Part shown: in pieces, positions 3,107-16,321 of the stretch | Numbering within the stretch: position 1 is the first letter of the stretch | How the letters are laid out: every line of letters begins with the position of its first letter | Source: a virus | DNA length: 19,979 nucleotides | Virus genome (UHGV): UHGV-0128318 | Direction: 5' to 3' (one strand) | Made by a program: the position numbers and the translations under genes | The notes under the pieces: generated by a model | Database searches by the model: none | Told to the model about the DNA's origin: nothing | Seen by the model: the letters and a program-made list of their open reading frames with translations, nothing else

Positions 3107-3151
3107 GTTCTCACGCTCTTGAATGGTGGTAGCCCAAGCGGGGGTGAGAAT
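3107..3151 (-). promoter_or_regulatory. Leader target elements upstream of the icd-like RBS: a second copy of the 10-mer gttctcacgc (3107-3116, identical to the RNA loop at 3277-3286) and its partial complement gtgagaa (3144-3150)
   Basis: Exact 10-nt direct repeat 170 bp apart plus a 7-nt inverted copy. This allows either an intramolecular hairpin in the mRNA leader or pairing of the upstream small-RNA loop with the leader. Confidence 0.45.
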
Positions 3152-3234
3152 ACCGGCAAACGAAGAAACCGGCCTGACCGAAGTCAGCCCCGCCTGAGCC
3201 ACCATAAATCGGATATGCGCAGGTATATACACAC

Positions 3235-3256
3235 AAAAAAACACGCTGGCGCGTGT
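3235..3256 (-). terminator. Intrinsic terminator on the minus strand (acacgc-gcca-gcgtgt followed by T7), inside the leader of the antirepressor operon
   Basis: 6-bp GC-rich stem, 4-nt loop, immediate run of 7 T on the minus strand. Confidence 0.6.
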
Positions 3257-3309
3257 TGTGCGCTTCGTTTATCCGGGTTCTCACGCCCGGCTGCGGAATT
3301 TGCCGCAGC
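3235..3309 (-). ncRNA. Candidate c4/CA-type small regulatory RNA of about 75 nt: two stem-loops (3291-3308 ctgcgg/ccgcag; 3273-3290 ccggg/cccgg with loop cgugagaa) followed by the terminator
   Basis: Promoter-like TTGACG-18-TAAAGT on the minus strand (3345-3316) placed about 7 nt before the first stem-loop; loop sequence repeated and complemented in the downstream leader. Matches the known architecture of P1 c4 / P4 CI / N15 CA immunity RNAs. Confidence 0.45.
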
Positions 3310-3315
3310 GGAGTA

Positions 3316-3345
3316 ACTTTACCGTTAAAACGACGCACACGTCAA
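3316..3345 (-). promoter_or_regulatory. Putative sigma70 promoter of the anti-immunity operon (TTGACG-18-TAAAGT)
   Basis: Hexamer match and spacing read from the sequence; no other support. Confidence 0.3.
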
Positions 3346-9819: not shown

Positions 9820-10519
9820 GTATATACGCAGCTGCGTCTCTACGGCATTGGCTGATGTTCATTATCTCCAGCGTGGCATTCTGGAGGTCCAGCTTGAGCA
9901 GATGCGTCTCGGTAGATCAGGACGGTTTAACAATAAACCAGTCCGGTCAATCAGTGTGGGGGATGATAACTCATACGAAGTGTCCGTTTCTGCTGAGCCG
10001 GTTAGATTCCATCAGGGGAAAACATTTAAACAATCATCAATGTTGCTCACTGATATTGATTTTCAGAGCGCCAGCTGGCGCAGGGCTATTGGTCAGTTGA
10101 ATAACGAGGAATCAGCCTGGCTTTATTATTGCTACGGATGCAAGCCTGATTACAACAATGATGTGATTGTTTGTCAGTGGTTATGGCTTGATTTTCTGGT
10201 TGCTCATTCGGGGGGCGGCTTTAAAAAAATGAAGGCCTCCACGAAAAAAGCTATGCGAAAATTGATTTATTACGCGGCACAACAGGTTAAATCAGAACTT
10301 ACGTGTGCTGAGGCAGTTGATGAGAGAGAACAGGACAGGCATCTGAGTTTTCTACTGAATATATCTATTGATAGCTGGAGACAAGATTATAAAGAACGCT
10401 GGCTTTTAATTAAGTCGCGATGTCTGAGCTTAAATCGAACTGCATTATTAAATGCGGCGGAGAAGCGCAGTGAAATCATCAAACGCCATCGGGCAGGAAG
10501 TGCCATTCTGCCTTTGTAA
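9809..10519 (+). CDS. Putative late-gene antiterminator (Q-like by position), 236 aa with CxxC (CYGC)
   Basis: Immediately downstream of and overlapping cro, as Q is in N15/lambdoid phages; the family assignment is positional only. Confidence 0.45.
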   Translation: MELEYIRSCVSTALADVHYLQRGILEVQLEQMRLGRSGRFNNKPVRSISVGDDNSYEVSVSAEPVRFHQGKTFKQSSMLLTDIDFQSASWRRAIGQLNNEESAWLYYCYGCKPDYNNDVIVCQWLWLDFLVAHSGGGFKKMKASTKKAMRKLIYYAAQQVKSELTCAEAVDEREQDRHLSFLLNISIDSWRQDYKERWLLIKSRCLSLNRTALLNAAEKRSEIIKRHRAGSAILPL

Positions 10520-10772
10520 ACAAGTTATGTTCAGGAAACCGTCGAAGCCAGAATTAAGGTATTCGGGGGTAAGAAATGAATATGTTATCTGGTGTCCAAC
10601 TTGTGGTTATAGGACACGACCAGATAGTAATAAGCAGTCTGTAATTGCCGATTGGTATTTATCAAATCAGCCAGGTAATAAGCATATAGAAAATCTTTGG
10701 ATTAAGCGTTACTTGGAAATCAGAGAGGGTGCGACCGTGGTCGCACAAGAAAATGAAAATAACGCCATTTAA
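10470..10772 (+). CDS. Zinc-ribbon small protein, possibly Lar-family (restriction alleviation-like): PFCLC ... WCPTCGY ... SVIADWY
   Basis: GTG at 10470 with GGAG at 7-nt spacing, overlapping the Q-like 3' end by 50 nt; an alternative ATG at 10527 loses the first Cys pair. Confidence 0.35.
   Translation: MKSSNAIGQEVPFCLCKQVMFRKPSKPELRYSGVRNEYVIWCPTCGYRTRPDSNKQSVIADWYLSNQPGNKHIENLWIKRYLEIREGATVVAQENENNAI
10729..10746. repeat. SopB-type centromere-like palindrome gtgcgacc-gt-ggtcgcac (family 1), within coding sequence
   Basis: 8-bp perfect arms. Confidence 0.5.
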
Positions 10773-10782
10773 GCAGGGGCCG

Positions 10783-10956
10783 ATGACGCATGATGAAGCA
10801 GAGCGTCTTTCAGATACTTATCGGCGGCGTGGTAAGAAAGTTCTGGTTGTTCGTTCTGATTTTTTAGGTGATGGATATTGTGTTTATGTTCATTTACCTG
10901 AATCAGAAAGAACGCCAAAACCATCCAGAACATATCAACAGAAAATTTGGGTATAG
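10783..10956 (+). CDS. Hypothetical small protein, about 57 aa (MTHDEAERLSDTYRRRGKKVLVVRSDFLGDGYCVYVHLPE...)
   Basis: ATG preceded by AGGGG; the track ORF 10729..10956 extends upstream across the palindrome and the preceding gene. Confidence 0.3.
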   Translation: MTHDEAERLSDTYRRRGKKVLVVRSDFLGDGYCVYVHLPESERTPKPSRTYQQKIWV

Positions 10957-10979: not shown

Positions 10980-11579
10980 GTGACTAATCAGATTATTTAC
11001 GACAGGAAACGGTCTGATGTAATGATTGACCTTGAAACAATGGGTACTAACACATGTGCTCCAATTGTTTCTATCGGGGCAGTGTTTTTTTCTCCAGAAA
11101 GTGAGGAATTAGGTCCTACTTTTTATGTGCCAGTGAATCTCAGAAGCTCGATGTTGAATGGTGGTATCGCCGATGGTGATACCATTTTATGGTGGTTGAA
11201 ACAGAGCAAGGAAGCCAGAGCCGCTATTTGTACTAATGATGCCCTTGATATTAATGATGCACTTTTTGAATTATCACACTTTATTACTTGCCATGCATGT
11301 AATTTAAAAAAGTTGAAAGTATGGGGAAATGGAGCAACGTTCGATAATGTAATTTTACGCGGTGCTTATGAGCGCGTTGGCTTAGCCTGTCCGTGGGAAT
11401 ATTTTAATGATCAGGATGTTCGAACAATCGTTAATCTTGGTCAGTTTATTGGTTTTAATCCTAAAAAAGATATGCCATTTGATGGCGAACGACACAATGC
11501 CTTGGCTGATGCTATTCATCAGGCTAAATATGTATCCGCAATTTTCTCCCGTCTTGTAAAAGGGCAAGGAGAATCGTAA
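10980..11579 (+). CDS. DEDDh-type 3'-5' exonuclease (DnaQ/RNase T-like fold), 199 aa
   Basis: Motifs MIDLETMG (Exo I, D-x-E) and HNALADA (Exo III, H-x4-D); GTG start with GAGGAG at 8 nt. Confidence 0.7.
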   Translation: MTNQIIYDRKRSDVMIDLETMGTNTCAPIVSIGAVFFSPESEELGPTFYVPVNLRSSMLNGGIADGDTILWWLKQSKEARAAICTNDALDINDALFELSHFITCHACNLKKLKVWGNGATFDNVILRGAYERVGLACPWEYFNDQDVRTIVNLGQFIGFNPKKDMPFDGERHNALADAIHQAKYVSAIFSRLVKGQGES

Positions 11580-11998
11580 TGGCAAAGGCTTTTACACCAG
11601 AACAGAGGGAAGAACTGAATAAACAAATTGTGGAACTCGTGCGCCTGAATGGACGAGGAACGGTTAGGCAACTTGCGGATGAAACTGGTATTAGCCGGTG
11701 TGCTGTTAGTCGTTTATCAAGAGAGCTTGCTGCCAGTGGTGATTTGTATATCTCTGGCTCCGGGATATTTCTGTCTGCACAAGCACGCAAGGACTGGCAA
11801 AACGCCCGTAAAAAACTATCAAGAGTAAAGCCGAAGAAATCGGTAGTGGTTGATCCAGACCTTATCTGGTCATTACCTGACGGAGAAATACGTCGTTACG
11901 ACAGGCGCTTGAACATGATTTGTCACGATTGCCGGAAAAGTGAAGTTATGCAGCGTGTGCTGGCTTTTTATCAGGGAAATTTACAGGAGGTGGCGTAG
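11579..11998 (+). CDS. Putative HTH DNA-binding protein, 139 aa
   Basis: Helix-turn-helix-like segment TVRQLADETGISRCAVSRLSREL; start overlaps the upstream stop. Confidence 0.5.
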   Translation: MAKAFTPEQREELNKQIVELVRLNGRGTVRQLADETGISRCAVSRLSRELAASGDLYISGSGIFLSAQARKDWQNARKKLSRVKPKKSVVVDPDLIWSLPDGEIRRYDRRLNMICHDCRKSEVMQRVLAFYQGNLQEVA

Positions 11999-12288
11999 TG
12001 AATATCGACACCACGATAACGATCGATACGGCCCTAAATATCGGTCTGGCACTTCTCGGTTGGTTTTACATCATGTTCAGTGCGGGGAAGTGGGCGGCCT
12101 CTGTTTTTCTAAAGCAGTGGGGAAAGCACCGCAAACAGGAAAGACGCCAGAAAGTGTTAGAGGCGTTCTATGACGCATTTGAACTTAGCCGCATTGAGCC
12201 AGGCACAACAGCCAAGATAGCGACAAAAGGCGACCTGATGATAGTGATGTTCCGACAGGAGAGAGCAGAGAAAGGGGAATCAGCATGA
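11998..12288 (+). CDS. Small membrane protein, 96 aa (hydrophobic segment ALNIGLALLGWFYIMF)
   Basis: GTG start after GGAGGTGG; one predicted TM segment. Confidence 0.4.
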   Translation: MNIDTTITIDTALNIGLALLGWFYIMFSAGKWAASVFLKQWGKHRKQERRQKVLEAFYDAFELSRIEPGTTAKIATKGDLMIVMFRQERAEKGESA

Positions 12289-12974
12289 AATTTTCCAAAT
12301 TTTCTGAGTTGGTGAATCGTATTTTGTCCAACAACCACAGCCATCGTCGCGATATGGATGTAACAATCGTTATTCATTCGCCTGGCAGCATTGGTTCAAC
12401 ACCCTCAGTTGAGGTTCAGTCAATTCACGCTGGTTTTGATTGGGATTCCGGGAAAGTGCTGATTTTCCCAGCACAGCCACTGACCACGCTAACACCAGAA
12501 CAGATTACTGATATTACTGATAGTGTGCGCAAAGGTCAGTCCTGGCACGCATATCAGGAATACAAGAAGCATAAAGAGCAGTTGGAAAAATTATCGATTG
12601 AACTTGATACCGCAAAACAGCGCATTGCAGAGCTGGAGAGCAATCGCGCGGCGCTGGCGGCGGAGCCTGTAGCGTGGCGATATCGCTACGTGAAAAAAGG
12701 CGTTACGGACTCTCAGGGGGAGCCGTGGGTTGGTGACTGGAAATATGTACCGACAACAGAGGATTGCAACGACAGGCCGAGCTATGAGATTCAGGCCTTA
12801 TTCACTGCCCCGCCAGTCCCGGTGACATCAGAAGGACTGGTTAAAGCCGTGCGTTTCTATGAACAAGTTAAGCGTGAAAATCCGCCAGTCGAAACCGGAG
12901 CATGGAAAGACGCGATTGACTGGGTGCTCAAAGAGGCCTGCCAGGTTGTAAACACTGGCATCAAAGGAGAATGA
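12285..12974 (+). CDS. Hypothetical protein, 229 aa, with a central coiled-coil (KEQLEKLSIELDTAKQRIAELESNRAALAA)
   Basis: ORF with overlapping start/stop junctions in the operon; no recognisable domain. Confidence 0.5.
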   Translation: MKFSKFSELVNRILSNNHSHRRDMDVTIVIHSPGSIGSTPSVEVQSIHAGFDWDSGKVLIFPAQPLTTLTPEQITDITDSVRKGQSWHAYQEYKKHKEQLEKLSIELDTAKQRIAELESNRAALAAEPVAWRYRYVKKGVTDSQGEPWVGDWKYVPTTEDCNDRPSYEIQALFTAPPVPVTSEGLVKAVRFYEQVKRENPPVETGAWKDAIDWVLKEACQVVNTGIKGE

Positions 12975-12975
12975 T

Positions 12976-13185
12976 ATGGCTATTGCCGCAAGTTACACCA
13001 TGCATCTCTATTGTGACTGCCGTCAGTGCACGGAAGGTGTATATCCAGTGCCAGACTTCGGTGAGTATATAGGTACGTCATGGGCTGGCTGTGCAAAAGA
13101 GGCGCGCAAGGATGGCTGGCGAATAAGCAAAGACAAAACGCGTGCTTTTGCGCCAGGGCATAAAGTTTTGAGGATTAACAAATGA
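12976..13185 (+). CDS. Hypothetical small Cys-containing protein, 69 aa
   Basis: Tightly packed within the operon; contains CDCRQC. Confidence 0.4.
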   Translation: MAIAASYTMHLYCDCRQCTEGVYPVPDFGEYIGTSWAGCAKEARKDGWRISKDKTRAFAPGHKVLRINK

Positions 13186-13577
13186 CCACTATTACCAAAG
13201 AGCGACTGCTGACAATCAAGCAGTGGCGCGAAACATACGGACCGGGTAGCAACGTTGTACTGCCAGCAGAAGAAGCGGAAGAACTGGCACGAATTGCGCT
13301 GGCATCGCTGGAAGCAGATCCAGTTAAACGAGTTAACTCAGATCAGATGCGCCGAGTCTGCTTAGAAGCTAATCGCCATTTAGATAAATATGACGCGATG
13401 GCGAAAGAGGTAAATAAGTTGCTTGGACGCATCGCCCCGCCAGCGCCGGTAGTGCCGGAAGAAATCAGTACGACCCACACAATGCTGCCCGCCATGAGTG
13501 ATCAGTTGATGGCGTTCGGTTATGTGAAGGGGTGGAATGCCTGCCGTGCCGCTATGCTTCAGGGAAAAGGAGAGTGA
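13182..13577 (+). CDS. Hypothetical protein, 131 aa (MTTITKERLL...)
   Basis: ATGA overlap with the upstream gene; shares its first five residues with the next gene. Confidence 0.5.
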   Translation: MTTITKERLLTIKQWRETYGPGSNVVLPAEEAEELARIALASLEADPVKRVNSDQMRRVCLEANRHLDKYDAMAKEVNKLLGRIAPPAPVVPEEISTTHTMLPAMSDQLMAFGYVKGWNACRAAMLQGKGE

Positions 13578-13578
13578 T

Positions 13579-14031
13579 ATGACCACTATAACCGATAAGA
13601 AACAGTATCCAGGCGAGCAATATCTTAATGAGCTGATCACCAACATAGAGTTTGCTGCAAGGGCACCAGTTGAAGTCGTGAGAGCGATGGCAGCAGAGCT
13701 ACAGAAGCGGCGCGAAGCTGATAGTGCAGAACCTGTAAGCCAAACTTACAAGTTAACTTTTGAGCAATGGCTGGAACAGCAGCACGGCAAAATTGATGTT
13801 GATTGCGGCTGTGTGAGCACTGAAATGCTTCTGCACTGGATGCGTGTGGCGTATGAGGCTGGCAACTCTCCGGTAACTCCGGATGGTCATGTTCAGTTTT
13901 CTGTTTCACTTCCTGCAGCGTTTGGTGGAGATAAATATTTTATTGATGGTGTATTTCAACCTTTGAGATATGAGCGTGACTGTGAAAGGGCGGTTGTGGC
14001 CGCTGGCGGTGTAGTTAATTGGGTTAAGTAA
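13579..14031 (+). CDS. Hypothetical protein, 150 aa (MTTITDKKQY...)
   Basis: ATG one nt after the upstream stop, RBS GGAGAG; the track start at 13537 is an extension. Confidence 0.5.
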   Translation: MTTITDKKQYPGEQYLNELITNIEFAARAPVEVVRAMAAELQKRREADSAEPVSQTYKLTFEQWLEQQHGKIDVDCGCVSTEMLLHWMRVAYEAGNSPVTPDGHVQFSVSLPAAFGGDKYFIDGVFQPLRYERDCERAVVAAGGVVNWVK

Positions 14032-14046
14032 TTTTCAGGAGGATTT

Positions 14047-14373
14047 ATGGCGCTGACACCGGCAGAACGGCAAAGGAGACGCAGGGAACGGTTGAAGAAG
14101 GAAGGCACATCAAGACGGGACTGGATTCTAGAACCTGACGAGTTACGTATGTTGGGGGAAATTTGTGTATTGCGTAGACCAGGGCGAGTTCCATATTCGG
14201 AGAACGAAGTCATTGGTTTGCTGATCAGGAAAAACTATAAGGAGCTGCAGAAGCAGCTATCTACTACTTGCCCGCGATGTGGTCAAAAAATGCCTGTTTC
14301 AGAATGCATTTTTGATGGCGAAGGGTCATGCCACCTTACAACCACGAGGCTGAAACTTGCGCTCAAAGCGTGA
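14047..14373 (+). CDS. Small basic DNA-binding-like protein with a C-terminal Cys cluster (TPAERQRRRRERLKKEG ... CPRCG ... C), 108 aa
   Basis: ORF with RBS AGGAGG; N-terminal Arg-rich stretch resembles a ribbon-helix-helix or basic DNA-binding region. Confidence 0.45.
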   Translation: MALTPAERQRRRRERLKKEGTSRRDWILEPDELRMLGEICVLRRPGRVPYSENEVIGLLIRKNYKELQKQLSTTCPRCGQKMPVSECIFDGEGSCHLTTTRLKLALKA

Positions 14374-14382
14374 CTGGTCACG
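14369..14382. repeat. Family-2 palindrome cgtgactggtcacg spanning the stop codon of the upstream gene and immediately before the next RBS
   Basis: Perfect 6-bp arms around a 2-bp centre. Confidence 0.6.
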
Positions 14383-14391
14383 GAGGGATAA

Positions 14392-14634
14392 ATGGATAAA
14401 AAGGCATTGCTTTTTGAAATGATACGAAAACGGAGCGAAAAGAGCTTTTCTGATGGTGGTGATGGGTTTGTTTTCGCTTCGATGCTTGCTTTTGATGTTG
14501 GGTTAAATAGCAGAATTGTTAAAAGGATGCTTGATTCTGCTGTCCGTACTGGACTTCTTGAGAAAGTTGATCGTGGCATAGGGAGAGAGCATAAGTATCG
14601 GGCCACACAGCAGTTTACGCAGTTAATTCATTGA
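14392..14634 (+). CDS. Hypothetical small protein, 80 aa
   Basis: ATG with GGAGGG RBS. Confidence 0.45.
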   Translation: MDKKALLFEMIRKRSEKSFSDGGDGFVFASMLAFDVGLNSRIVKRMLDSAVRTGLLEKVDRGIGREHKYRATQQFTQLIH

Positions 14635-14662
14635 AAATTGACCGTAAAGTTTGAGTTTTACC

Positions 14663-14678
14663 CTGTAATTTTATACAG
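14663..14678. promoter_or_regulatory. LexA (SOS) box CTGT-aattttat-ACAG overlapping a candidate promoter (TTGAGT-17-TACAGT)
   Basis: Matches the CTGT-N8-ACAG consensus with an AT-rich spacer; the only such site found in the window. Confidence 0.55.
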
Positions 14679-14716
14679 TACAAACAACCTTTTTTAGTTA
14701 AATGGTATGAGATTTA

Positions 14717-14920
14717 ATGTCTGAAGCAGCCGTATCAACTCTTGAACAACTCGATTCAAATTTAAGAGATATTGACGCCATTCTGGATCTGGTTAGCGTC
14801 ACCCTGGCTTCTCCAGAAGCCAGCCTACATATTGGTGAGGTTTCACGACTCATCAACATGTCGCGAGAGATTGCCCAGCATTGTCAGAAAACTATCGCTG
14901 TTGAGCGTTCACATCATTGA
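14717..14920 (+). CDS. Small SOS-controlled protein, 67 aa; candidate LexA-regulated antirepressor (AntC/Tum-like by regulation and position)
   Basis: First ORF downstream of the LexA box; N15 is known to have a LexA-controlled small antirepressor. No sequence-level identification was possible. Confidence 0.4.
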   Translation: MSEAAVSTLEQLDSNLRDIDAILDLVSVTLASPEASLHIGEVSRLINMSREIAQHCQKTIAVERSHH

Positions 14921-14962: not shown

Positions 14963-15250
14963 TTAATAAACAGCGCGAATATCGATGGCTGCGCCGCAGG
15001 CATGAGCATATTTAGCCAAAGTTTTCATACTTGCCCCTAAAGGATTGCTTTCCAGGCGGCTGATGGCTGACGGTCGTAACCCCATTCGTTCAGCCAGAGC
15101 TGATTTCGTTAAACCTGCTCTTTCCCTCATTTCGTATAACATTTCGACCATCTCCAGCTCTTTGTCGGCCTCTTCATATCCTTTGACGGCTTCTGGAGTG
15201 TTGAGGAGTTTTTCTTTTACTTCGTTAAACGGGATGCCTTTCGCTTTCAT
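14963..15250 (-). CDS. HTH (XRE-family) antitoxin, HigA-like, 95 aa
   Basis: HTH segment LTKSALAERMGLRPSAISRLES; translationally coupled (ATGA) to the upstream toxin gene. Confidence 0.75.
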   Translation of the reverse strand: MKAKGIPFNEVKEKLLNTPEAVKGYEEADKELEMVEMLYEMRERAGLTKSALAERMGLRPSAISRLESNPLGASMKTLAKYAHACGAAIDIRAVY

Positions 15251-15561
15251 CAGTTCATCTCCTTCAGGCGAGTTCTGGCGATTTCGATAGCCTTCACCGG
15301 TGTTTTCTGTGTCTTTTTTACAAATGCATGCAATAGATAAATTTCGTTACCAGTCGCGTAGGCGTACAGCGTTCTTGCGATGTTTTTATCCCCTACTCGT
15401 AGTTCAAAAAGCCCTCCACCTATTACACGGCTATGGGGCATCTTCAGTTTGTTGCCTTCTTTCTCCAGTCGCTCAATTAATCTGGCCATGCGACCTCGCA
15501 AATCATCTGGTAGTTCAAGCAGTTCATCCAGTGCTGCAGGGTGGGTTATCACGTTAAACAT
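15250..15561 (-). CDS. Gp49-like (RelE/HigB-fold) toxin, about 103 aa (MFNVITHPAALDEL...LLHAFVKKTQKTP...)
   Basis: Hallmark LLHAFVKKTQKTP motif of the Gp49-like family; ATG at 15561 with GGAGG at about 8 nt; the track's longer start lacks an RBS. Confidence 0.8.
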   Translation of the reverse strand: MFNVITHPAALDELLELPDDLRGRMARLIERLEKEGNKLKMPHSRVIGGGLFELRVGDKNIARTLYAYATGNEIYLLHAFVKKTQKTPVKAIEIARTRLKEMN

Positions 15562-15726
15562 ATTATAGCCTCCACATCCATAAAATACACCAAAACAAGA
15601 AAACAACGCAAATTAAAAATTTCATTAAAAAGCGAAAAATAACACTGGATGTGTTCGTTTGGCAGAGTTACAGTTCGTGTCATTGAGGGGCAATAACCCA
15701 CTAACTATATGAATTTGGAGGATATT

Positions 15727-16213: not shown

Positions 16214-16298
16214 GCACAAAAACGAAAAAGCTTGGCAAAATGACGGTTTTTAGTTATTGTTTTGTTAAGTTGGGTTTTTTGTACCCAACAGCCAACAA

Positions 16299-16321
16299 GC
16301 CGCCTTTATGGCGGTTTTTTT
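16299..16321 (+). terminator. Intrinsic terminator (gccgcc-tttat-ggcgg then T7)
   Basis: GC stem with a U-tract; preceded by a second hairpin gttgggt-ttttttgt-acccaac. Confidence 0.7.

Follow-up and report, generated by a model that had tools for sequence, protein, structure and literature searches.

We analysed a block of eight open reading frames (ORFs; g1-g8, positions 11579-14634) in a 19,979-nt stretch of the virus genome UHGV-0128318, hereafter the window. All eight lie on the plus strand, at the coordinates given by an earlier reading of the letters alone (the sequence-only reading). With a probability of about 80%, the block belongs to a linear N15-like (Ravinvirus) plasmid-prophage, where it makes up the accessory part of the early rightward region, and contains a recombination hot spot for modules of the Ea22 and DUF551 type, a case of ordinary phage mosaicism and not a new system. 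Its centre, g3-g6, is best described as a hypervariable cassette that behaves as one expandable modular gene between two fixed anchors: on the 5′ side the g3 N-domain with its coiled coil, and on the 3′ side the final ~45 amino acids of g6.

The block was 100% identical to plasmid pF16EC0617-5 (CP088379.1) from an Escherichia coli blood isolate; the annotation there names DUF977 and DUF4752 and calls the other six proteins hypothetical. The Ravinvirus phages PhiR46_1 and YDC107_1 matched at 97-98% identity over ~90% of the window length, and the replication gene, CB repressor, cro and Q are common with N15 and phiKO2 at 74-77%. The block lies between the genes of a Q-like antiterminator and a 3′-5′ exonuclease on one side and the late promoter on the other. 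At least 80% of it was found in one place in one of 72,556 plasmids (CP088379.1) and in none of 5,426 complete E. coli genomes. The outer genes g1, g2, g7 and g8 are backbone genes that are kept in the listed E. coli N15-like plasmids, whereas the variable centre is not kept. N15 has counterparts of g7 and g8 only (gp46 and gp47) and none of g1-g6. Separately, CP088379.1 was deposited as a circular 36.6-kb plasmid, whereas its close relatives, linear phage-plasmids of 46 kb, have a protelomerase; this prophage may thus be linear in fact, its assembly having been left incomplete or closed to a circle artificially.

The g3-g6 cassette and its modules

A blastn comparison with PhiR46_1 (L001) showed that positions 11401-12637 and 13730-14800 of the window are colinear with this phage at 98-99% identity. 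Between the two pieces the window has 1,092 nt (12638-13729, plus strand), which take in the g3 C-half, g4, g5 and the g6 N-module, where PhiR46_1 has 5 nt, and YDC107_1 gave an equal two-piece match with megablast. PhiR46_1 carries a single 219-amino-acid 'Ea22' ORF composed of g3 residues 1-118 and g6 residues 51-150. Its join reads AKQRVAELE/AKPVSQTYKL, and the window counterparts are AKQRIAELE/SNRAALAAEPVAWRY in g3 and AELQKRREADSAEPV/SQTYKL in g6, so that both breakpoints lie in the coiled-coil and 'EPV' linker region. A simple precise deletion in the relatives was considered and rejected, since a single crossover in the window sequence could not yield the junction codons GAA GCC AAA CCT.

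Other relatives fill the same place differently. Plasmid pG749_3 has a 249-amino-acid DUF551 protein, a 73-amino-acid ORF and a 176-amino-acid ORF, the last gene being annotated as a pseudogene. An Escherichia albertii N15-like plasmid has a 239-amino-acid protein ending LRKGE, then a 149-amino-acid protein beginning MTTITRE, whose C-half is the g3 C-half, and then a 137-amino-acid protein beginning MTTFTDKE. The four variants compared thus have 1, 3, 3 or 4 ORFs between DUF4752 and gp46, and all four begin with the common N-domain (MKFSKFSE) and coiled coil of the first ~118 residues and end with the common ...QFSVSLPAAFGGDKYFIDGVFQPLRYERDCERAVVAAGGVVNWVK module of the last ~45 residues. The named in-frame linkers are AELE, EA(D/E)PV, PPxPVVP, GWNACRAAML and NSPVTPDG, and the named joint motifs include AELE, EAxPV, NSPVTPDG and AAAGGAGAnTGATATGACCACT.

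The modules of the cassette genes recur widely. The g3 protein (12285-12974, plus strand; 229 amino acids) consists of a strand-rich N-domain (residues ~1-85), a coiled coil (~86-125), the linker AAEPV and a C-module ending IKGE at the stop codon; it matched phrog_6026, phrog_368 and phrog_660. A long helix was predicted at residues 71-137, and the AlphaFold2 model was moderately confident at residues 90-120 only (predicted local distance difference test, pLDDT, 74-84). Proteins that bear the name ead/Ea22-like, a part of them passing Pfam PF13935, have 97-98% identity to the g3 N-half, and at least 20 different C-modules were found behind this one N-half, mostly in proteins from ~90-kb contigs. 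The N-domain is old, being shared at ~40% identity with Pseudomonas phages of ~72 kb and with Aeromonas phages.

The first MTTIT gene, g5 (13182-13577, plus strand; 131 amino acids), encodes one module from MTTITKERLL to ALASLEADPV, a second from KRVNSD to APPAPVVPEE, a third ending GWNACRAAMLQ, and a terminal GKGE. It corresponds to the N-terminal two-thirds of common DUF551 proteins, without the DUF551 domain itself. The search gave 4,864 protein homologues, and features were scored on the best 120 of these; most of the 120 are 212-226 amino acids long, ~90 residues longer than g5, with a C-terminal PF04448 domain, and 24 of them end in [K/Q/S]GE as g5 does. As DNA, the 145 nt that open g5 (13182-13326) recur with 92-98% identity in many of 353 matching phage records, which include Stx (Shiga toxin) phages, P7 and the Gally 'EaA' gene.

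The second MTTIT gene, g6 (13579-14031, plus strand; 150 amino acids), has a module from MTTITDKKQY to ADSAEPV, a module from SQTYKLTFEQW to GNSPVTPDG, and a last module from HVQFSVSLPAAFGGDKYFIDG to NWVK, the conserved 3′ anchor of the cassette, whose last 49 residues were found in 10 phage records only. Helices were predicted at residues 13-47, followed by the variable modules; phrog_6847 matched at residues 1-58 and phrog_924 at 59-97. The protein P0124 contains g6 residues 1-103 and then DUF551 in place of the last g6 module, while the N-module stands before other middles in P0205 and P0213 and adjoins the ea22 gene in Stx2a phage F765. The three proteins g3, g5 and g6 each match several overlapping PHROG families of mosaic proteins (phrog_60, 368, 660, 5117, 6026 and 6847). 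When they were compared with one another, the sole alignment was between g3 and g6, over the short AEL...AEPV linker (E 0.003). The module shuffling suggested by the sequence-only reading is therefore borne out, as modules of g3-g6 recur in other combinations in Stx and other lambdoid phages, ~90-kb contigs and N15-like elements. The exact four-gene filling is rare, but its parts are common, and the process that assembles them is already on record for Ea22 genes.

The same comparisons could also be taken to mean that the cassette is debris, in which a foreign 1.1-kb fragment split one Ea22-like gene into g3 and g6 and carried in the truncated DUF551 gene g5, leaving non-functional remnants. 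This would fit the intact 219-amino-acid gene of the closest relatives, which joins the g3 N-half to the g6 C-half, the greater length of most close g5 homologues with their DUF551 domain, and the pseudogene annotation of the last gene in pG749_3. However, the g3-g6 ORFs are all intact, and each one has its Shine-Dalgarno site, start and stop placed at a canonical boundary. Short g5-like forms (125-143 amino acids, with a GKGE end) are seen repeatedly in many independent clusters, and other full-length proteins contain the g3 C-module and the g6 N-module as conserved modules. Further database contigs (P0001, P0123, P0241) show this arrangement with 98-99% protein identity. We consider decay improbable and retain the view of a modular cassette exchanged between fixed anchors.

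The MTTIT starts and the gene boundary

Both g5 and g6 begin with MTTIT, as had been noticed earlier, and their start DNA, ATGACCACTAT[T/A]ACC, is identical at 14 of 15 positions. This 15-nt pattern has two sites in the whole window against a chance expectation of 0.06, and two copies arose in none of 200 shuffled sequences. The sequence-only reading had also claimed a similar upstream context and proposed a duplication. The context is in fact different, with GGAAAAGGAGAGTGAT upstream of g6 and TTTTGAGGATTAACAA upstream of g5, the 30 nt before each start being unlike. BLASTP of g5 against g6 gave E = 0.55, with no similarity past the pentapeptide. A hidden Markov model (HMM) built from 39 distinct g5-type N-modules aligned the MTTIT of g6 only (7.4 bits); when MTTIT was removed, g6 scored 0.8 bits, which was reached by 341 of 1000 shuffles. 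Of what the sequence-only reading had named as refuting it, one half was thus observed, in that the two proteins share nothing detectable past the first five residues except an A(D/E)PV module end. The other half was not, as g1, g2, g7 and g8 are backbone genes without a known role and g3-g6 are variable.

If g5 and g6 were nevertheless tandem paralogues from a local duplication, they would have diverged everywhere except at the N-terminus. Their adjacency, the common pentapeptide with its 14 of 15 identical nucleotides, the ~50-residue helical N-modules that both end in A(D/E)PV, and the match of both to the long mosaic profile phrog_60 from position 116 are in keeping with such an origin, whereas the BLASTP and HMM results are not. 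Moreover, near-identical copies of the two occur in different company, g5 in DUF551 proteins and the g6 N-module beside the Stx2a Ea22, and the MTTIT start is found on at least eight unrelated N-modules. A divergence that spared exactly the first 15 nt would need the boundary as a conserved unit, which is the explanation given below, and we regard a duplication as very unlikely.

The start sequence belongs to a larger unit. An M-x-T-x-T start was present in 95 of the best 120 g5 homologues, where the at least eight unrelated N-modules include KERLLTIKQW, KERIELFIKN, FTKEQLISHA, TREWLQQAIN, TREQALKIIE and FTDKELIKEI. The MTTIT DNA is the 3′ half of a ~29-nt boundary, AAAGGAGAnTGAtATGACCACTwTwACC (AAAGGAGAnTGA-T-ATGACCACT). 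The full boundary was found at the g5 end and g6 start (13566-13593, plus strand; AAAGGAGAG TGA T ATGACCACTATAACC); Stx2a phage F765 has one copy of it, and the E. albertii N15-like plasmid has two. Elsewhere in the cassette the halves stand singly, the upstream one at g3/g4 (12963-12978) and the downstream one where g5 starts (13182-13196). In N15, the halves lie at separate junctions with the same motifs, gp43 (containing AELGRKP) ending TTKGE and gp45 starting MITITKEWL. Where AAAGGAGAn is read in frame and followed by a stop (AAAGGAGAnTGA), a start codon follows 1-2 nt later in seven of eight cases at five loci, among them those of N15, the Stx2a phage, E. albertii and the window. In P0235 the joint is read through as an in-frame fusion, REGEMTTITDKK.

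The boundary supplies a Shine-Dalgarno sequence AAGGAG, read as the last codons K-G-E, then the stop and the next start, M-T-T-I-T. Therefore, g5 and g6 both begin with MTTIT because both sit downstream of this kind of joint, and not because they are duplicates. An in-frame ATG at 13537, 42 nt before the g6 start, would give a 164-amino-acid ORF overlapping the g5 end, and at least one database entry (P0121) uses this start; we place the g6 start at 13579, in agreement with the majority of homologues and with the positions of the Shine-Dalgarno site and the conserved boundary.

The boundary may also account for a feature of Ea22 proteins. All of these proteins end in +GE (K/R-G-E), and in 2020 the significance of this end was recorded as not known (PMC7093339). 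Since the K-G-E codons coincide codon for codon with AAAGGAG, we infer that the +GE end is the embedded Shine-Dalgarno site of a coupled downstream gene. The lambda ea22 gene (NC_001416, 348-370, minus strand) ends GGCATTCGCATCAAAGGAGAGTGA, identical to the end of the Stx2a ea22. After this end, the ATG of an MTTITDKK gene follows 1 nt on in the Stx phage, and nothing follows for ~190 nt in lambda, which fits a retained, leftover half-boundary in the lambda gene.

Relation to Ea22 and DUF551 proteins

The Ea22 proteins of lambda and Stx phages are early, pro-lysogenic proteins, the full-length protein being tetrameric, and they run from an N-segment through a coiled coil into a variable C-terminal domain. 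Among Stx phages they are mosaic, with DUF551 in one variant (PMC10834534, PMC7093339). The cassette resembles them in being early, beside a recombination or exonuclease gene, in having a short N-segment and a long coiled coil with C-domains swapped mosaically, and in the C-terminal K/R-G-E; in F765, the ea22 end GGCATTCGCATCAAAGGAGAGTGA is followed by a g6-type MTTITDKKQY gene. The Ea22-type architecture (PMC10834534) was found in g3, which has the coiled coil, the variable C-module and the IKGE end; g5 ends GKGE, and g6 ends NWVK without +GE. The cassette differs from the lambda and Stx loci in that the g3 N-domain is a different, strand-rich domain that also occurs in Pseudomonas and Aeromonas phages, and in that three such genes stand in a row in a rightward operon after Q of a linear plasmid-prophage.

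The likeness to DUF551 proteins, which include YfdS of CPS-53 and the Ea22 variant V2, is confined to their N-terminal parts. Over 98% of its length, g5 is 96% identical to the N-part of the 224-amino-acid P0002, and g6 residues 1-103 are identical to the N-part of the 164-amino-acid P0124, in which the linker NSPVTPDG precedes DUF551. In contrast to these proteins, g5 stops at GWNACRAAMLQGKGE and g6 ends in an unrelated 45-residue module. The DUF551 domain is ~68 amino acids long and is marked by WISCSERMP and HWMPLPEPP, and P0002 and P0124 matched PF04448 at 57.5 and 39.7 bits.

Between the anchors, modules and whole small genes are swapped with the ead/Ea22-DUF551 pool of lambdoid, Stx and other plasmid-borne (~90-kb contig) elements, and we propose the following working. 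Phages and prophages that reside together may recombine at the short conserved joints, which would act as patches of homology, and the intergenic joint would keep the exchanged genes translationally coupled. The block would be transcribed early after derepression, from the cro promoter or from some promoter after Q; in N15, however, a paper on telomere phages describes an operon whose sole cistrons are cro and q (PMC4488713). By analogy with the lambda and Stx Ea22, g3, g5 and g6 may be oligomeric early proteins, and their variable C-modules may engage host or competitor targets and thereby bias the lysis-lysogeny or host-takeover outcome.

Several points weigh against the reading of the block as an early accessory region with an Ea22/DUF551 hot spot. 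None of g3, g5 and g6 matched Pfam PF13935 (Ead_Ea22) at E <= 0.1, although the profile, whose gathering score is 27 bits, matched the controls lambda Ea22 (100.9 bits), Stx2a Ea22 (138 bits) and P0277 (32.5 bits), which is 97% identical to the g3 N-half and has a different C-part. Neither g5 nor g6 matched PF04448 (DUF551), the motifs WISCSxxMP and HWMPLPEPP being absent from them, and g3 was also below threshold. The comparison of g3 with lambda Ea22 was borderline (BLASTP E 0.003, hhalign probability 36%). The link to Ea22 therefore rests on the modules shared in intermediate proteins and on the architecture, and not on a direct homology with the lambda protein. The AlphaFold2 models of g3 and g6, made with alignments, had mean pLDDT values of 51.7 and 46.5, too poor (52 and 47 in round numbers) for a test of the folds. 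The change may have been an insertion here or a deletion in the relatives, whose junction AELEAKPVSQ is not a simple deletion product of this sequence. Finally, the co-transcription with cro and Q is an assumption.

Frame genes, surroundings and possible roles

The genes of the block are closely packed, but not to the extent claimed earlier. The exonuclease gene and g1 overlap by 1 nt (TAATG), as do g1 and g2 (TAGTG); g2/g3 and g4/g5 overlap by 4 nt each (ATGA), and g3/g4 and g5/g6 have 1-nt spacers. The description of overlapping or abutting junctions therefore holds for the first five internal junctions, whereas g6/g7 (15 nt) and g7/g8 (18 nt) are near, not abutting; these two longer spacers contain AGGAGG and GGAGGG. 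Packing is equally tight upstream of g1, through cro, the Q-like gene, two small ORFs and the exonuclease gene, so that the eight genes are an arbitrary slice of a longer unit that is tightly packed from cro onward. The two small ORFs between Q and the exonuclease gene (10452-10956, plus strand) match what the annotations of N15 and YDC107_1 call 'orf QD1', and the first of them (10452-10772) overlaps the Q end by 68 nt and has a CxxC...C motif.

Each of the eight ORFs matched a PHROG family (E 1e-24 to 1e-54), and they are therefore real genes and not chance ORFs. The sequence-only reading had been able to place none of them in a known family; all eight belong to catalogued families, such as DUF977 and DUF4752, mostly without an assigned role or with no more than a suspected one. 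NCBIfam gave no family-level match for any of g1-g8, and PDB sequence searches with g1, g3, g5, g6, g7 and g8 gave nothing significant.

The first frame gene, g1 (11579-11998, plus strand; 139 amino acids), matched PF06163 (DUF977) with 101.9 bits (E 3.9e-29; gathering score 22.1 bits), residues 1-136 covering positions 1-134 of the 134 in the profile. It has an N-terminal winged helix-turn-helix (wHTH), with weak Pfam matches to HTH_24, AsnC and IclR at residues 12-54, and its best PDB match was the wHTH of MntR (E 0.028, not significant). It falls into phrog_142, 'Ren-like exclusion protein' (E 9.7e-42), together with lambda Ren. In a single BLASTP comparison, g1 residues 112-131 aligned to Ren 73-92 only (E 9e-6), both having the C-terminal motif N-[ML]-[IV]-x-x-x-C-R-x-S-x-x-M-x-R-V-L-A-x-Y. 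Unlike g1, Ren is 96 amino acids long and has no Pfam match, and the similarity is limited to these 20 residues. The g1 homologue in PhiR46_1 bears the name 'LygF', and g1 is present in E. coli N15-like plasmids and absent from N15.

The g2 gene (11998-12288, plus strand; 96 amino acids) matched PF15944 (DUF4752) with 131.3 bits (E 1.3e-38; gathering score 27 bits), residues 7-89 aligning to positions 1-83 of 84, and phrog_667 (E 4.7e-41). The start of the match at residue 7 supports the GTG start. Its one hydrophobic stretch (residues ~11-37) is probably membrane-spanning. We found no functional data on DUF977, DUF4752 or 'LygF' in the literature.

Within the cassette, g4 (12976-13185, plus strand; 69 amino acids) encodes a small Cys-rich protein that matched phrog_926 over its full length (E 7.8e-37) and has C13, C15, C18, C39 and H52. 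It corresponds to 933W L0068 and was found by tblastn in 427 phage records, in Stx phages at 90% identity and at 40-47% in 150-168-kb Salmonella, Klebsiella and Escherichia phages and in a 38-kb Klebsiella phage.

At the other end of the frame, g7 (14047-14373, plus strand; 108 amino acids) is 80% identical to N15 gp46 over the full 108 residues (E 3e-66) and matched phrog_536 (E 5.6e-32), a family labelled 'transcriptional regulator'. It has an Arg/Lys-rich N-terminus and a zinc-ribbon-like C-terminus (CPRCG...C...C), and it gave no Pfam or PDB match of note. The last gene, g8 (14392-14634, plus strand; 80 amino acids), is 68% identical to N15 gp47 over 73 residues (E 5e-37) and matched phrog_13995 (E 2.8e-47); its similarity to wHTH proteins is weak and sub-threshold, and a winged-helix-like fold is possible. 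Both thus belong to the gp46 and gp47 families and stand, as in N15, just upstream of a RelE/ParE-HTH pair. The g1, g7 and g8 proteins are probably small DNA-binding regulators.

The slot itself is the one that N15 uses for genes 42-47, between the exonuclease gene and the RelE/ParE toxin-antitoxin pair, with gp46 and gp47 conserved. N15 differs in that gp42-45.1 have no detectable similarity to g1-g6 and in that DUF977 and DUF4752 are lacking; we found no expression data on N15 genes 41-47 in the literature. Directly after the block, and convergent with it, the minus strand carries genes for a toxin of the RelE/ParE family (15250-15606) and for an HTH antitoxin (14963-15250), which are the counterparts of N15 genes 49 and 48. 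A ninth plus-strand gene (14717-14920, 67 amino acids) begins 82 nt past g8 and matched phrog_6301 and, more weakly, phrog_10889 'anti-repressor'; it is kept in PhiR46_1, YDC107_1 and other N15-like plasmids, and the co-directional series thus extends beyond g8.

A consensus scan of 11579-14634 gave no promoter-like or terminator-like site on the plus strand, a layout like that of an operon, the scan counts for the wider region not being above those of shuffled sequence, and Rfam gave no match within the block. Downstream, at 16232-16317 (plus strand), a promoter-like TTGGCA, a 17-nt spacer and TATTGT are followed by a strong terminator with an 8-bp stem, 5 GC pairs, and a T-run. In N15 the annotated late promoter and terminator occupy this position, before the genes for the methylase and for lysis, and the site is probably the target of the Q-like antiterminator. 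Elsewhere in the window, Rfam matched a C4 antisense RNA (82 bits), an isrK-like RNA (68 bits) and c4 a1b1 target elements (49 bits) at 3122-3322 on the minus strand, and this region resembles a secondary immunity (antirepressor control) locus of the P1/P7/N15 type.

A further account concerns function. The variable cassette, perhaps together with g1, could be a counter-defence or exclusion locus whose C-modules bind or inhibit host defence or toxin systems in an arms race. The extreme turnover of modules on a constant oligomerising scaffold, the early gene position and the occurrence of g4 and of the g3 N-domain in the other phage types named above would suit such a role, as would the membership of g1 in the PHROG of lambda Ren and their common C-terminal motif. 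PADLOC-DB 2.0, a library of defence systems and not of anti-defence proteins, gave no defence-system match, with weak HTH-type matches for g1 (E 0.003-0.014) and none for g2-g8. The sole tested relatives, the lambda and Stx Ea22, gave a pro-lysogenic phenotype and not one of anti-defence. We hold a counter-defence role to be a tentative and rather unlikely possibility. The same doubt applies to the bolder proposal that the ead/Ea22-DUF551 genes are a cassette-exchange system common to N15-like, lambdoid/Stx and further plasmid-borne coliphage elements, in which the fixed ~29-nt joint and the in-frame linkers act as recombination 'splice sites' that re-equip a constant oligomerising scaffold, the array being a fast-evolving locus for counter-defence or host manipulation. 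If this were true, new target-binding modules would be gained either fused or as separate coupled genes, by a logic like that of polymorphic toxin loci, and the conserved '+GE' C-terminus would be nothing but the embedded ribosome-binding site of the joint.

On the preferred reading of an early accessory region subject to ordinary mosaicism, the six hypothetical proteins of CP088379.1 become nameable: three are of the Ea22/DUF551 type, one is a phrog_926 Cys-rich protein, and two are gp46-like and gp47-like. The cassette provides a worked example of how one gene, the 219-amino-acid 'Ea22' of PhiR46_1, can expand to four genes through exchange at defined joints. It also shows that N15-like plasmid-prophages and Stx phages use a common accessory gene pool.

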